Below are positions 4,526 to 16,633 of a stretch of DNA of 36,299 bases, piece by piece. The stretch is taken from the UHGV virus genome UHGV-0160579; one strand, given 5' to 3'. This DNA is from a virus. How positions within the stretch are numbered: the first letter of the stretch is position 1; every line of letters begins with the position of its first letter. Made by a program: the position numbers and the translations under genes. Below the pieces are notes generated by a model that was given only the letters and a program-made list of their open reading frames with translations, was not told where the DNA came from and ran no database searches.

Positions 4526-4822
4526 TTATACCTCTGAATCAATATCAGCCTGATGGTGAGCAATGGTTTCAACTATGTACCGGATGTGTTCTGCCATGCG
4601 CTCCTGAAACTCAACATCGTCATCAAACGCACGGGTAATGGCTTTTTTGCTGGCCCCGTGGCGTTGTAAATGATCGATGCATAGCGATTCAAACAGGTGC
4701 TGGGGCAGGCCTTTTTCCATGTCGTCTGCCAGTTCTGCCTCTTTCTCTTCACGGGCGATCTGCTGGTAGTGACGCGCCCAGCTCTGAGCCTCAAGACGAT
4801 CCTGAATGTAATAAGCGTTCAT
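4526..4822 (-). CDS. gam: Gam, RecBCD inhibitor (short GamS form)
   Basis: 98 aa; matches the C-terminal 98 residues of lambda Gam ([21 protein letters not shown]...HHQ.DIDSEV). Confidence 0.9.
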
Positions 4823-5797: not shown

Positions 5798-5998
5798 TCA
5801 GGCAGCTTTGTTGTTCTGTTTACCAAGTTCTCTGGCAATCATTGCCGTCGTTCGTATTGCCCATTTATCGACATATTTCCCATCTTCCATTACAGGAAAC
5901 ATTTCTTCAGGCTTAACCATGCATTCCGATTGCAGCTTGCATCCATTGCATCGTTTGAATTGTCCACACCATTGATTTGTATCAATAGTCGTAGTCAT
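5798..5998 (-). CDS. ral: Ral, restriction alleviation protein
   Basis: 66 aa; matches lambda Ral (MTTTID.NQWCGQFKRCNGCKLQSECMVKPEEMFPVMEDGKYVDKWAIRTTAMIARELGKQNNKAA). Confidence 0.9.
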   Translation of the reverse strand: MTTTIDTNQWCGQFKRCNGCKLQSECMVKPEEMFPVMEDGKYVDKWAIRTTAMIARELGKQNNKAA

Positions 5999-7518: not shown

Positions 7519-8271
7519 TTATGCTGCAAGTCTCTTAACCCAAGTCTCTCTTTTGGAGAATGGTAGAACTTGGCTTGATTCATGGAAGAGTAAGGAGAGT
7601 TGTTGCATTTGATCACCAATTGCTTCGCTGTCTATAACAACAAATCTGTTGTTATACTCCTCACTTGAAGCTTTAAGATCAATTAGTTTCCCAAGCAATG
7701 AGTAAGCACTATTCCAGCTTCCTCCGTGTTTCACGCTTGATGTAAAAACGTATTTAGGTATGTCGGTTTTTATTGTTACAGGGACGGTAATTTGATGTCC
7801 ACTCAAGCCATATACGTTTTCACGAAGAGAAAGTGCGTCTCTAAGCTCTGTGTGATATAGATAATCAATAACCATACTTTCAAACTTTTCAGCTTGAACT
7901 GGCTGATACCAGTCTAACGACAAAGTTGATGCGAGTATACCAGCTCTAATTATGTTCGATGTAATCGCACCGACATCCTTTTCTGTTGCCCAAGCAATGA
8001 TTTCTCCTCGAGCATTGAGTTCTGCGCCTTCTTTAAGCAGTAATTGTCGTATCTCATCAAGTCGTTTTTTGGTAAGCGAGATCCCTCTTGCCTCCATATT
8101 CATTAAGGCATCGCATCTGTCACTAACTAAATACCTACCATTGACTTCACGGATAAAGGCACCGACATGCTCTCCATCATCACAGTAAGTGAATGGACTG
8201 ATAATTCTCAAGGTCTTGCCTATTGGATGGCATTCGAAACCTAGTTGTGAGATCACTGTTGAGCACATCAT
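7519..8271 (-). CDS. Uncharacterised protein (250 aa), second gene of the two-gene cassette downstream of cI; candidate phage-exclusion component
   Basis: ATG start overlaps the stop of the upstream gene (ATGA coupling); AT-rich codon usage unlike neighbouring lambda genes; no transmembrane segment or catalytic motif recognised by eye; occupies the rexB-equivalent slot. Confidence 0.75.
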   Translation of the reverse strand: MMCSTVISQLGFECHPIGKTLRIISPFTYCDDGEHVGAFIREVNGRYLVSDRCDALMNMEARGISLTKKRLDEIRQLLLKEGAELNARGEIIAWATEKDVGAITSNIIRAGILASTLSLDWYQPVQAEKFESMVIDYLYHTELRDALSLRENVYGLSGHQITVPVTIKTDIPKYVFTSSVKHGGSWNSAYSLLGKLIDLKASSEEYNNRFVVIDSEAIGDQMQQLSLLFHESSQVLPFSKRETWVKRLAA

Positions 8272-8825
8272 ATTCCAAACCCCATTTGCCCCGACTCATC
8301 TTCAAGCGGTAAAGGTATTCTCCCAGAGTAAGTTATGTTCAGATGTTTACAGAAGTAATTCCAATACCCTACCAGGTCATCTGGGTTTATGTCATCTTCG
8401 ATTGGAAACGCTATTCTATCACTATAGTATCCAGCTTCTTCATAGTATACATGGTAGTGAGCACCGTAAATGATATCTTGGTACTTCGGATGATCGACCT
8501 TGTAACTATTCGTGTGTTTGTCAAAGTGATAGGTATCTACCGCGAAAACCCTCTTGTTATGATAGAAAGCAATAATATTTATTTTAGGGTAAGAAATCGG
8601 GTCATCAGGTTCTGAATCCTGATCTGGTTTCCATTTCAGTTCAAACTTTAGCCCTTGTATAGGTATACAATCCTCATCCAAGGGGATGATATGGGCTTGT
8701 AGCCACATATCAGAGCGACTTGGTTTCTGTTTCCATTTAACGCCAGAAAAGTTAACTATTTTTTTACAATAAAGTACTTTATCAACTTCTACTTGGCTTG
8801 GCTGATAATCATCTATTTTTGCCAA
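8268..8825 (-). CDS. Uncharacterised acidic, Tyr/His-rich protein (185 aa), first gene of the two-gene cassette downstream of cI; candidate phage-exclusion component
   Basis: ORF starts 39 nt after the cI stop on the same strand; AT-rich; contains a His/Tyr-rich stretch (YHFDKHTNSYKVDHPKYQDIIYGAHYHVYYEE); no similarity to RexA recognised. Confidence 0.75.
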   Translation of the reverse strand: MAKIDDYQPSQVEVDKVLYCKKIVNFSGVKWKQKPSRSDMWLQAHIIPLDEDCIPIQGLKFELKWKPDQDSEPDDPISYPKINIIAFYHNKRVFAVDTYHFDKHTNSYKVDHPKYQDIIYGAHYHVYYEEAGYYSDRIAFPIEDDINPDDLVGYWNYFCKHLNITYSGRIPLPLEDESGQMGFGI

Positions 8826-12230: not shown

Positions 12231-12262
12231 CAGGCCTGCAGGTAATCGCAGGCCTTTTTATT
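12231..12262 (+). terminator. tR2-like intrinsic terminator (GGCCTGC-N8-GCAGGCC followed by TTTTTATTT)
   Basis: GC-rich hairpin plus T-tract between ren and ninB, the lambda tR2 position. Confidence 0.7.
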
Positions 12263-12279
12263 TGGGGGAGAGGGAAGTC

Positions 12280-12720
12280 ATGAAAAAACTAACCTTTGAA
12301 ATTCGATCTCCGGCACATCAGCAAAACGCTATTCACGCAGTACAGCAAATCCTTCCAGACCCAACCAAACCAATCGTAGTAACCATTCAGGAACGCAACC
12401 GCAGCTTAGACCAAAACAGGAAGCTATGGGCCTGCTTAGGTGACGTCTCTCGTCAGGTTGAATGGCATGGTCGCTGGCTGGATGCAGAAAGCTGGAAGTG
12501 TGTGTTTACCGCAGCATTAAAGCAGCAGGATGTTGTTCCTAACCTTGCCGGGAATGGCTTTGTGGTAATAGGCCAGTCAACCAGCAGGATGCGTGTAAGC
12601 GAATTTGCGGAGCTATTAGAGCTTATACAGGCATTCGGTACAGAGCGTGGCGTTAAGTGGTCAGACGAAGCGCGACTGGCTCTCGAATGGAAAGCGCGAT
12701 GGGGAGATCGGGCTGCATGA
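12280..12720 (+). CDS. ninB: NinB (Orf; recombination mediator)
   Basis: ATG at 12280 after RBS GAGAGGGAAG; matches lambda NinB (MKKLTFEIRSPAHQQNAIHAVQQILPDPTKPIVVTIQERNRSLDQNRKLWACLGDVSRQVEWHGRWLDAESWKCVFTAALKQQD...). Confidence 0.9.
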   Translation: MKKLTFEIRSPAHQQNAIHAVQQILPDPTKPIVVTIQERNRSLDQNRKLWACLGDVSRQVEWHGRWLDAESWKCVFTAALKQQDVVPNLAGNGFVVIGQSTSRMRVSEFAELLELIQAFGTERGVKWSDEARLALEWKARWGDRAA

Positions 12721-13244
12721 CTATCAAATCAAATACGCCAGCACACGACAAGGACTGCTGGCAAACGCCGCTTTGGCTTTTTGATGCACTGGATATTGAG
12801 TTTGGATTCTGGCTGGATTCGGCAGCGAGCGACAAAAATGCTCTGTGCGCTCACTGGCTAACTGAGGACGACGACGCGCTCAATTCTGAGTGGGTAAGCC
12901 ACGGTGCAATCTGGAATAACCCACCGTACAGCAATATCAGGCCGTGGGTGGAAAAAGCCGCTGAGCAGTGTATACAACAGCGACAGACGGTAGTGATGCT
13001 TGTGCCAGAGGATATGTCTGTCGGATGGTTCAGCAAGGCTCTGGAGAGTGTTGACGAAGTTCGTATTATCACTGATGGACGGATTAATTTTATCGAACCA
13101 TCGACAGGGCTGGAGAAGAAGGGAAACAGCAAAGGCTCCATGCTGCTGATTTGGCGACCGTTCATCAGTCCTCGACGGATGTTTACTACCGTATCCAAAG
13201 CGGCATTGATGGCGATCGGGCAGGGCGTCAGGAGGGCTGCATGA
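12717..13244 (+). CDS. Orphan DNA N6-adenine methyltransferase (Dam-like)
   Basis: 175 aa from the ATG at 12717 (ATGA overlap with ninB stop); catalytic NPPY motif ([10 protein letters not shown]); no adjacent restriction endonuclease gene. Confidence 0.85.
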
Positions 13245-13417
13245 GACGACAGCGACGAAGCATCACCGACATAATCTGCGAAAACTGCAAATACCTTCCA
13301 ACGAAACGCTCCAGAAATAAACGCAAGCTAATCCCAAAAGAATCTGACGTAAAAACCTTCAATTACACAGCCCACCTGTGGGATATCCGGTGGCTAAGAT
13401 ATCGTGCGAGGAAATGA
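13241..13417 (+). CDS. ninE: NinE
   Basis: 58 aa from the ATG at 13241; [58 protein letters not shown] matches lambda NinE. Confidence 0.85.
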
Positions 13418-13419
13418 CA

Positions 13420-13761
13420 ATGGATTATTCACAGTTAAGTGATTTTGAAATTAACAGAATGGTAGGAGACATAATTTTTAAAGGCCTTTGGGCAAGTAAA
13501 CCGGAAACATCAGGGAATAACACCAACAAATGGTATTACGGAAATGCTGATACAACTTTTGAGCCATTAAATCATTTGCCTGACTACTGCAATGATCCGA
13601 GCGCTTCATGGCCGATTATTGAGAAATACAGGATTTCTATCTTAGACCAGTTAACTGAATGGTGTGTGGATGCAAAAGGCGTAAGCCCAATATTTGATAC
13701 CAGACCTCTCCGCGCCGCCATGATTGTCTTTCTCCTGATGCAGGAGGCCAATAATGCTTAG
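13420..13761 (+). CDS. Hypothetical phage protein (about 113 aa), AT-rich
   Basis: ORF following ninE; start chosen at the ATG with the best RBS spacing (13420; alternative 13414); no motif recognised. Confidence 0.55.
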
Positions 13762-13948
13762 CCCATCTCAATCCCTTCAATACCTGAAAGAAAGCATAGA
13801 GCGGGCTTCAATGTGCACAGAGTGGATTCTATCTAGGTTTAGCGCATACAGAAGATTGCCGGTAAAGGGCATGCCAAGCAAGTCGATGCTGCATATGCAA
13901 AAGAATGCGCGCTGGAAGGTATGGCGAGAACACAGGTTATGTGGCTGA
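13754..13948 (+). CDS. NinF-like protein with a divergent C-terminus
   Basis: N-terminus [18 protein letters not shown] matches lambda NinF, but the remainder lacks the Cys-rich NinF tail I recall; good RBS (CAGGAGG). Confidence 0.5.
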
Positions 13949-13967
13949 AAGAGGGGGTTATTAAGGC

Positions 13968-14330
13968 GTGAATACCTACAGCATCACATTACCCTGGCCT
14001 CCGAGCAATAATCGCTATTACCGCCATAATCGCGGGCGCACGCACGTCAGCGCAGAGGGGCAGGCATACCGCGATAACGTCGCCCGAATCATTAAAAACG
14101 CAATGCTGGATATCGGCCTGGCTATGCCTGTGAAAATCCGCATTGAGTGCCACATGCCGGATCGCCGTCGCCGTGACCTGGATAATCTGCAAAAAGCCGC
14201 TTTTGACGCACTCACTAAAGCAGGTTTCTGGCTGGATGATGCTCAGGTCGTTGATTACCGCGTTGTGAAGATGCCTGTTACCAAAGGTGGGAGGCTGGAA
14301 CTGACCATCACCGAAATGGGGAATGAATGA
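13968..14330 (+). CDS. rusA: RusA Holliday-junction resolvase
   Basis: 120 aa, GTG start; matches E. coli DLP12 RusA ([46 protein letters not shown]...) with the catalytic acidic residues (DLDN, D..DD). Confidence 0.95.
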
Positions 14331-14467: not shown

Positions 14468-14552
14468 AGTCAGAGATAACAATCAACTAATACTGTTTTG
14501 TTGATTTTTGCTTGTAATTGGCGTTCTGGTCTGATTTTTGTGGAGTAAGTTG

Positions 14553-14936
14553 ATGCGTGATATTCAGATGGTTCTTGAGCGTTGGGGTGCGTGGGCGGCT
14601 AATAATCATGAAGATGTGACCTGGTCGTCCATTGCCGCCGGTTTTAAGGGATTAATTCCTTCAAAAGTAAAATCTCGCCCGCAATGTTGTGACGATGACG
14701 CGATGATCATTTGCGGGTGCATGGCCCGTCTGAAAAAGAACAACAGCGATTTACACGATTTATTAGTAGATTATTATGTATGTGGTATGACATTCATGTC
14801 ACTGGCAAGTAAGCATTGCTGCTCGGATGGTTATATCGGGAAAAGGTTACAGAAGGCTGAGGGCATAATTGAAGGGATGTTAATGGCATTAGATATCCGG
14901 TTAGATATGGATATCGTTGCTAATAATTCTAATTGA
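14553..14936 (+). CDS. Q: Late-gene antiterminator Q (non-lambda Q family, phage 21/82/DLP12-like)
   Basis: 127 aa from the ATG at 14553 (RBS TGGAG); Cys-rich zinc-binding region ([12 protein letters not shown]...C...CC); located between rusA and the lysis region. Confidence 0.8.
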
Positions 14937-15124: not shown

Positions 15125-16207
15125 TTAGAACTGATAAACCAGACCTACAGCGACGATGTCGTCGGTATCAATACCAGCTGTTTTGGTAAACTTACTATCG
15201 TCAATTAAGTTGATTTTGTAATCAACAAAAGTGGACATGTTTTTATTAAAGTAGTAAGTAGCACCGACATCGACATACTTGACTAAGTCTCGGTCACCAT
15301 GAACACCAAGGTCTTTACCTTTTGACTGAAGGTAAGCAACAGATGGACGCAGACCGAAGTCAAACTGATATTGTGCTACTGCTTCAAAGTTTTGTGCTTT
15401 GTTTGCAATATGGTTATTACCAAAAACGGTCATATTCTGAGTTTCAGAATATGTGGTAGCCAGATAGATATTGTTCGCATCATATTTCAGGCCTGCAGCC
15501 CATACTTCCGCATTTTTGCCGGAGGCATTGAATTTGCTCTTACCATAGGCGACCTGACCGTCAGTGCGATCTGATTTAGCATAGGTTGCACCCACGCCGA
15601 ATCCTTCATACTCATAAGTAGTGGAGAAACCGAAACCATCACCATTGGCTTCAGTTACGTCAGTGCGGTCATTTTTACCCTGATACTGAGCAGCAAAGTT
15701 CAGGCCATCGACCAGACCAAAGAAGTCGTTGTTACGATAAGTTGCAACACCAGTAGTGCGACCAGTCATGAACACATCTGTTTGGGTCCAGGTATCACCA
15801 CCGAATTCTGGCAGAACGTCAGTCCACGCACCGATGTCGTATGCTACACCGTAGTTACGGCCGTAATCGATTGAGCCGTAATCACCAAATTTCAGGCCTG
15901 CAAATGCAAGACGGGTTTTGTCTTTGGAAGAACCTTGAGATTCAGCACGGTTGCCTTTGAATTCATATTCCCACTGACCGAAACCAGTCAGTTGATCGTT
16001 GATTTGGGTTTCACCTTTGAAGCCAAGACGGGCATAAGTAGTATCACCATCATCTGCATCATTAGAGGAGAAGTAGTGCTTGGCATTAACTTTCCCGTAT
16101 AGATCCAGCTTGTTACTGTCTTTATTATAAATTTCAGCTGCCTGAGCAGACATCGCCATCAGTACTGATGCAGCTACAGCAGAAATTGCCACTGTTAATT
16201 TTTTCAT
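15125..16207 (-). CDS. nmpC: Outer-membrane general porin (OmpC/OmpF family; NmpC/Lc-type phage porin)
   Basis: ATG at 16207 gives a signal peptide [23 protein letters not shown], porin-type beta-barrel sequence and C-terminal ...VAVGLVYQF; the track start at 16267 is an unsupported extension; located between Q and the holin as in DLP12 and PA-2. Confidence 0.9.
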
Positions 16208-16633
16208 TGTACGCCCTTTTTTTGAACTATTATTAAAAAATGATGTCACTGCGCGATAAATATTCATCTAATCAATGTGATTATTTCAAGATGTAAGTTT
16301 TAGTTTCTCATTTAATTTGTGAAGTAGATCTCTATTTTTATCTGAACCTTTTCTATCTAATCCTATTCATGGCTCTTGTCTGAACAAAAATAAATCTATT
16401 AGCTAATTTATATTAATGGCACTTATTTATAAGTGCTCTATAATTCTTTAGCTTAATTTAAACAAACTAAAAATAACATCGGAAATTATTAACTGGTTAT
16501 TTGTTGAAGTTTTCTTATGCATTTGTGGTGGTGTTTTGAACACTCGGTGGCATTCTCACAAATATCATTTAGTAGTTTACGTACGTAAAAAATTGGTTAT
16601 GCTGTTAAGAGTGGTTACTTCGTCACACAGCTT

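Follow-up and report, generated by a model that had tools for sequence, protein, structure and literature searches.

A very probable GATC N6-adenine methyltransferase, allelic to M.EcoVT2Dam, encoded between ninB and ninE of a lambda-like prophage

The window analysed here, a stretch of 36,299 nucleotides from the virus genome UHGV-0160579, derives from a lambda-like prophage. Its left arm holds int, xis, small exo-xis ORFs, exo, bet, gam, kil, an ea10-like gene and ral; the immunity region comprises sieB, N, a two-gene candidate defence pair, cI, cro and cII, and is followed by O, P, ren, the nin genes, Q, a porin gene, lysis genes and lambda-like structural genes. Within the nin region, in a neighbourhood of ren, ninB, ninE, ninX and rusA, lies a gene for a phage N6-adenine DNA methyltransferase (12717..13244, + strand; 528 nt, 175 aa). 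The reading frame runs from an ATG at 12717 to a TGA at 13242-13244, and its length and NPPY motif (residues 68-71) are as the initial annotation had given them. A program-made list of open reading frames places the start at an upstream GTG (12657). We favour the ATG form, in which the Pfam match begins at residue 4; full-length homologues range from about 170 to 185 aa, 175 itself being a frequent length, and the RefSeq annotation is likewise of 175 aa.

The gene is tightly packed between its neighbours. Upstream, ninB (12280..12720, +; PF05772, E 1.1e-54; phrog_72) encodes the Orf recombination mediator, and its stop codon overlaps the methyltransferase start in an ATGA at 12717..12720; downstream, the methyltransferase stop and the start of ninE (13241..13417, +; PF05322, E 1.8e-41) share a second ATGA at 13241..13244. 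Junctions of this ATGA type have been described for the nin regions of lambdoid phages (PMC8022706). A Shine-Dalgarno-like GGGGAG (12701..12706, +) lies within the 3' end of ninB, 10 nt 5' of the methyltransferase ATG. The initial annotation held the gene to be translationally coupled to ninB and ninE; both overlaps are indeed present, and from them we infer that the three genes would be translated in step.

Several minor features of this slot can be noted alongside. An identical 11-nt sequence, GGGCTGCATGA, occurs at 12710-12720 and 13234-13244, that is, at the ends of ninB and of the methyltransferase gene, so that NinB and the methyltransferase both terminate in RAA. We considered this repeat as the mark of a mobile cassette and rejected the idea, as the left copy is no more than the ninB 3' end, which is conserved and found also at the lambda ninB/ninC junction; an exact-pattern scan of viral contigs returned no direct ninB-ninE junction with an end of the GGGCTGCATGA type. 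The repeat may be microhomology left by module exchange. Two GATC sites, at 12706-12709 and 13214-13217, each lie inside one of the near-repeated 11-mers GGAGATCGGGC and GGCGATCGGGC, one overlapping the Shine-Dalgarno region of the methyltransferase gene and the other situated 24 nt 5' of the ninE start. In lambda, ninC and ninD occupy the slot held here by the methyltransferase gene. Lambda NinC, which directly follows ninB, is labelled 'phosphoadenosine phosphosulfate reductase', and the same label is attached to a 228-aa protein of Salmonella phage FSL SP-088 (NC_021780, 2462-3148) that aligns with methyltransferase residues 3-168 at 25% identity; in the FSL SP-088 case the label is probably a misannotation.

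Profile searches place the protein firmly in a single family. PF05869 ("Dam") matches residues 4-169 over profile positions 1-167 of 169 (E 3.7e-65; 219.1 bits against a cut-off of 28.1), and the NCBIfam equivalog TIGR01712 ("phage N-6-adenine-methyltransferase") is matched over its whole length (profile 1-165 of 165; E 1.2e-79; 265.6 bits against 97.05); these full-length matches above curated cut-offs uphold the original assignment as an N6-adenine methyltransferase. The protein also matches phrog_111 ('DNA methyltransferase'; E 8.3e-88), its best PADLOC model is 'orphan methyltransferase', and a scan up to E = 10 returned no Pfam family other than PF05869. Alignment shows the catalytic motif to be intact: NPPY (motif IV; codons 12918..12929, +), D34, T17-P18 and some 40 further positions are invariant in 38 homologues of 59-86% identity, and NPPY is also kept in the proteins of VT2-Sakai, HP1 and T1. 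The invariant D34 sits within the segment FWLDSAAS (residues 31-38; codons 12807..12830, +), predicted to form the first Rossmann strand, which by comparison with gamma-class enzymes would correspond to the AdoMet-binding motif I.

Two more distant relatives, the cloned or purified Dam enzymes of phages T1 and HP1, are GATC methyltransferases without a restriction partner. Both belong to PF05869 (T1 Dam, AAP49979, 237 aa, E 1.7e-70; HP1 Dam, orf13, 173 aa, E 7.1e-75). Their identity to the window protein lies in the range of 32-35% (33% by BLASTP for T1 Dam, 35% for HP1 Dam), and they share with it NPPY, an LD..A motif containing D34, the TP pair at T17-P18, and the R122, F125 and K139 positions. 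The Dam of T1, a virulent phage, is extended by about 45 aa at its N terminus and contains an insertion of 14 aa; HP1 is a P2-like Haemophilus phage. Literature cited in PMC7556043 likewise describes both enzymes as GATC methyltransferases lacking a restriction partner. E. coli Dam, T4 Dam and DpnM, in contrast, are alpha-class enzymes of about 260-280 aa in which FxGxG, the recognition domain and DPPY follow in that order; in the window protein NPPY stands some 30 residues past motif I without a recognition domain inserted, and only PF05869 was matched (E up to 10). The window enzyme is thus unrelated to the host Dam beyond the common methyltransferase fold, though its predicted site is the GATC of the host enzyme.

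Other groups of adenine methyltransferases were considered and set aside. The non-specific Hia5/Hin1523 group, which we had first suspected, consists of alpha-class DPPY enzymes of a different family (Drozdz et al.), Hia5 itself having FxGxG, then a recognition domain, then DPPY. M.EcoGII, a beta-class enzyme of 349 aa, also belongs to a different family; M.EcoGI and M.EcoGII are typified by about 350 aa with DPPY towards the N terminus, FxGxG towards the C terminus and the recognition domain between them, whereas the window protein has 175 aa and the opposite motif order. M.EcoGII and Hia5 are prophage-borne orphan m6A methyltransferases thought to modify phage DNA after induction (PMC5778455, PMC3299994), but they are about twice the size of the window enzyme, carry DPPY and have no sequence specificity. 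As to the relaxed-specificity PhiOS31_p25/phiP27 enzyme, the phiP27 homologue is a 352-aa protein encoded 3' of Q and lies outside the PF05869 family. The rRNA methyltransferase of Stx prophage PA8 described by Koudelka's group (M.EcoPA8orf6770P) resembles the window enzyme in being a small prophage protein annotated as a GATC DNA methyltransferase, but it is an MT-A70 protein with DPPW, encoded near int, and therefore a different gene; it needs a partner, PNB-2, and prefers 16S rRNA (PMC10810198). The window protein has NPPY instead of DPPW and no MT-A70 match, which separates it from M.EcoPA8orf6770P and from the Tn1549 Dam, a further member of MT-A70.

An AlphaFold2 model built from the 38-sequence alignment (mean pLDDT 85.9, pTM 0.85) predicts a compact alpha/beta fold in which strand 31-36 bears D34 and strand 64-68 ends in NPPY, consistent with a class I (Rossmann-like) fold whose AdoMet-binding strand precedes motif IV. 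A sequence search of the PDB found no related entry (best E 0.31, to SdiA) and hence no solved structure for the PF05869 family. The nearest PDB folds are the catalytic domains of N6-adenine methyltransferases, namely that of M.TaqI, and PCIF1, in whose NPPY/NPPF amino-methyltransferase core motif I precedes motif IV, as here, but which show only 14-17% identity and have large extra substrate-recognition domains that the window protein lacks. The model and its nearest folds thus point to a protein reduced to the amino-methyltransferase core, its motifs in gamma-like order and without a recognition domain of its own. Our guess for the DNA-contacting element is the conserved segment 121-140, with G121, R122, F125, K139 and G140.

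The sequence specificity of the enzyme can be approached through a nearly identical protein. The product of orf32 of phage VT2-Sakai has the same length and agrees with the window protein at 174 of the 175 residues, both genes being 528 nt long; the single difference (D51 in the window protein, A51 in VT2-Sakai) falls in a variable column without a majority residue. The orf32 gene sits between homologues of ninB (nin146) and ninE (nin60). Because it is the only annotated methylase gene in the 50 kb examined of the 61-kb VT2-Sakai genome, we equate it with M.EcoVT2Dam, an enzyme reportedly cloned from a Stx2 phage by Radlinska and Bujnicki in 2001 and said to be GATC-specific. M.EcoVT2Dam, whose gene is also present in 933W and Phi24B, shares with the window gene the ninB-ninE slot and the 528-nt size; VT2-Sakai differs in having stx 3' of Q, where the lambda-like window prophage has a porin gene. 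Later papers, all citing Radlinska & Bujnicki 2001, list M.EcoVT2Dam as a cloned, GATC-specific orphan methyltransferase (PMC6602927, PMC7139368, PMC7556043).

Given the 174/175 identity to the orf32 product and these citations, homology by way of M.EcoVT2Dam predicts the adenine of GATC as the target of the window enzyme. This also settles how far the term 'Dam-like', used in the initial annotation, is appropriate: it is apt for function, because a characterised enzyme of 99.4% identity is cited as GATC-specific, but not for ancestry, which is with the HP1/T1/VT-2 family of PF05869 and not with E. coli or T4 Dam. On sequence comparison, we consider it very probable that the gene encodes an active, stand-alone, AdoMet-dependent GATC N6-adenine methyltransferase of the PF05869/TIGR01712 family, allelic to M.EcoVT2Dam; the biological roles considered below are extrapolated from that assignment.

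When the gene would be expressed can be judged from its operon context. An intrinsic terminator lies between ren and ninB (12232..12265, +), with a G+C-rich stem of 8 bp at 12232-12255 followed by a T run, the position being that of tR2 in the ren-ninB interval of lambda; the name tR2 and the dependence on N we take over from established lambda biology. Promoter-like sites between 9500 and 15200 numbered 7, against 7.6 +/- 2.9 in shuffled sequence, and none was seen just 5' of the methyltransferase gene. With the terminator in place and no excess of promoters, the gene should therefore be delayed-early and N-dependent within the pR operon, and silent under CI repression. The dam gene of Phi24B (528 nt), 100% identical to the window gene, was among five CMAT-identified genes followed by qPCR, of which four showed lytic-cycle-linked expression, lom being the exception (PMC3342100). 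There is little support for the earlier suggestion that the enzyme can also change the gene expression of the host in the lysogen: the target duplicates that of host Dam, and effects on the lysogen are unlikely because the gene lies behind the tR2-like terminator in the delayed-early pR operon.

We envision the following course of events. Transcription from pR would reach the gene only upon N-mediated read-through of the tR2-like terminator, such that in the lysogen the gene would be silent and its activity redundant with host Dam. During lytic growth, the phage enzyme, made together with the replication and recombination genes, would complete the GATC methylation of the fast-replicating progeny DNA left under-methylated by host Dam. 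Virion DNA of lambda, P22 and L is under-methylated at Dam sites (PMC3299994, PMC8022706), and in lambda, which is without the methyltransferase gene, about 50% of Dam sites in virion DNA are methylated (PMC3299994). Once fully methylated, progeny DNA would resist methylation-sensitive GATC cutters of the MboI/DpnII type, a protection that would persist when the phage has grown in hosts poor in Dam, and it would cease to be a substrate for MutH nicking or SeqA binding. Our literature search found no paper testing deletion of the nin-region methyltransferase gene.

One property of the window counts against this account. GATC is under-represented, with 102 sites against 148 +/- 12 expected from dinucleotide-preserving shuffles (all 100 shuffles gave higher counts), a depletion that would be needless if methylation protected the DNA fully and is mildly odd for a phage with its own GATC methylase. 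Methylation data must be read with the same target in mind: as the predicted site is that of host Dam, no new motif is to be expected in a dam+ lysogen, and the lack of one in methylome studies of dam+ strains is uninformative on the activity of the gene. Strain 95NR1, which has two copies of the gene, shows only the methylation motifs GATC, CTGCAG and CRARCAG.

A pair of linked ideas would shift the emphasis, namely that GATC is read in an unusual manner (for example by a dimer, or by the conserved 121-140 hairpin) and that the main role is shielding recombination and replication intermediates from MutH and SeqA and not anti-restriction. The shielding idea is hinted at by the gene neighbourhood, with ninB (Orf) and rusA here and a Holliday-junction resolvase gene in T1, yet we hold the pair to be rather improbable. 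In T1 (AY216660, 38540-39737) the Dam family member is encoded directly 3' of the Holliday-junction resolvase gene, and here the methyltransferase gene lies between ninB (Orf) and rusA (12280-14330); adjacency to recombination genes in two unrelated phage types could be coincidence.

Four further readings bear on activity, substrate or partnership. Non-specific prophage m6A methyltransferases that are silent in lysogens do exist in E. coli and Haemophilus (PMC5778455, PMC3299994, PMC7556043), and the window protein has no recognisable target-recognition domain, so one might picture an adenine methyltransferase of relaxed or no specificity, comparable to M.EcoGII or Hia5, that gives broad protection against many restriction systems. 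We give this little credence: the known non-specific enzymes are of other classes (Hia5 alpha; M.EcoGII beta, 349 aa; the phiP27 homologue 352 aa), whereas the window protein matches PF05869 only, and for the 99.4%-identical enzyme GATC specificity is cited in PMC6602927. Marginally less probable still is that the real substrate is RNA, such as rRNA, possibly with a partner protein, as for the other Stx-prophage methyltransferase annotated as Dam.

It seems very remote that the gene has lost its activity and persists as a passenger of the nin region. The nin region is dispensable in lambda, and there is decay nearby, the ninX-rusA interval of the identical Nissle region containing a fragment of DUF1364; but the methyltransferase reading frame is full length, all family-invariant residues (NPPY, D34 and T17-P18 among them) are kept, and copies of at least 95% DNA identity occur in 244 phage records, isolated phages among them. 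We assign a similarly negligible probability to the gene serving as the methylase of a restriction-modification system, with the nuclease encoded elsewhere in the prophage. Room for such a nuclease is left by the window itself, which stops inside tail genes short of the far right end of the prophage. However, no restriction endonuclease domain was detected among the scanned left-arm, immunity and nin genes of the 36-kb window, and none is annotated by RefSeq in the near-identical prophage of E. coli Nissle 1917 from sieB to the tail genes, so that over this range the gene is an orphan, as originally proposed. Moreover, the ninB-ninE slot is constant across phages with unrelated late regions, and a GATC-cutting nuclease needs no dedicated methylase in a dam+ host. 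Two other genes mentioned with the methyltransferase in the initial annotation, ral (5798..5998, −; PF11058, E 1.7e-48) for anti-restriction and gam (4526..4822, −; PF06064, E 1.4e-63) for anti-RecBCD function, were both recovered in the early-left operon by full-length Pfam matches.

The gene is widespread. Its 528 nt are 100% identical in phages ev207, ev017 and PhiR57_1, and the 244 phage records with copies of at least 95% DNA identity include many Stx1 and Stx2 phages, HK140 and Sf101; at the protein level, the 933W enzyme is 99.4% and that of phage 434 98.3% identical. The ninB-ninE slot is retained in VT2-Sakai, 933W, 434, HK140 and Sf101, whose late regions are unrelated. A literature search on the ECOR-derived phages bearing the identical gene returned nothing relevant. 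Among complete E. coli genomes, 1566 of 5426 (about 29%) carry a copy of at least 95% DNA identity, and identical copies are found in Nissle 1917, ATCC 11775 and NU14 under the RefSeq name "phage N-6-adenine-methyltransferase". The gene carries little weight as a discovery: it has a curated NCBI pipeline name, was reportedly cloned in 2001 and is present in some 29% of complete E. coli genomes, which makes it both known and very common.

Elsewhere in the prophage, further features deserve mention. Between cI and N, in the slot of lambda rexAB, lie two overlapping genes (7519-8271, −, and 8268-8825, −). PADLOC matches them to a candidate defence pair, over the full length for PDC-M24B (E 4.7e-10) and with E 4.8e-4 for PDC-M24A; Pfam yields only DUF1828 and a weak DUF6978 for them, and the Nissle 1917 prophage has this pair as well. 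An OmpC-family porin gene (15125-16267, −), situated between the gene for the Q antiterminator (14538-14936) and those for lysis, is named ompC in the RefSeq annotation of the Nissle prophage; among prophage porins it resembles Lc and NmpC. Within the early-left operon, the exo-xis region encodes a 73-aa DksA/TraR-type zinc-finger protein (2107-2328, −; PF01258, E 6.7e-9). In the ninX-rusA interval, at about 13754-13971, an N-terminally truncated DUF1364 gene is annotated in the identical Nissle region, which suggests a deletion scar in the nin region. Positions 1-25000 of the window are intact in no complete E. coli genome of the collection, the best match being split into six pieces that cover 92% at 98.6% identity; the prophage is thus a mosaic of common modules. 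Its Nissle 1917 relative adjoins icd and has lost the left arm to an IS3-family insertion.
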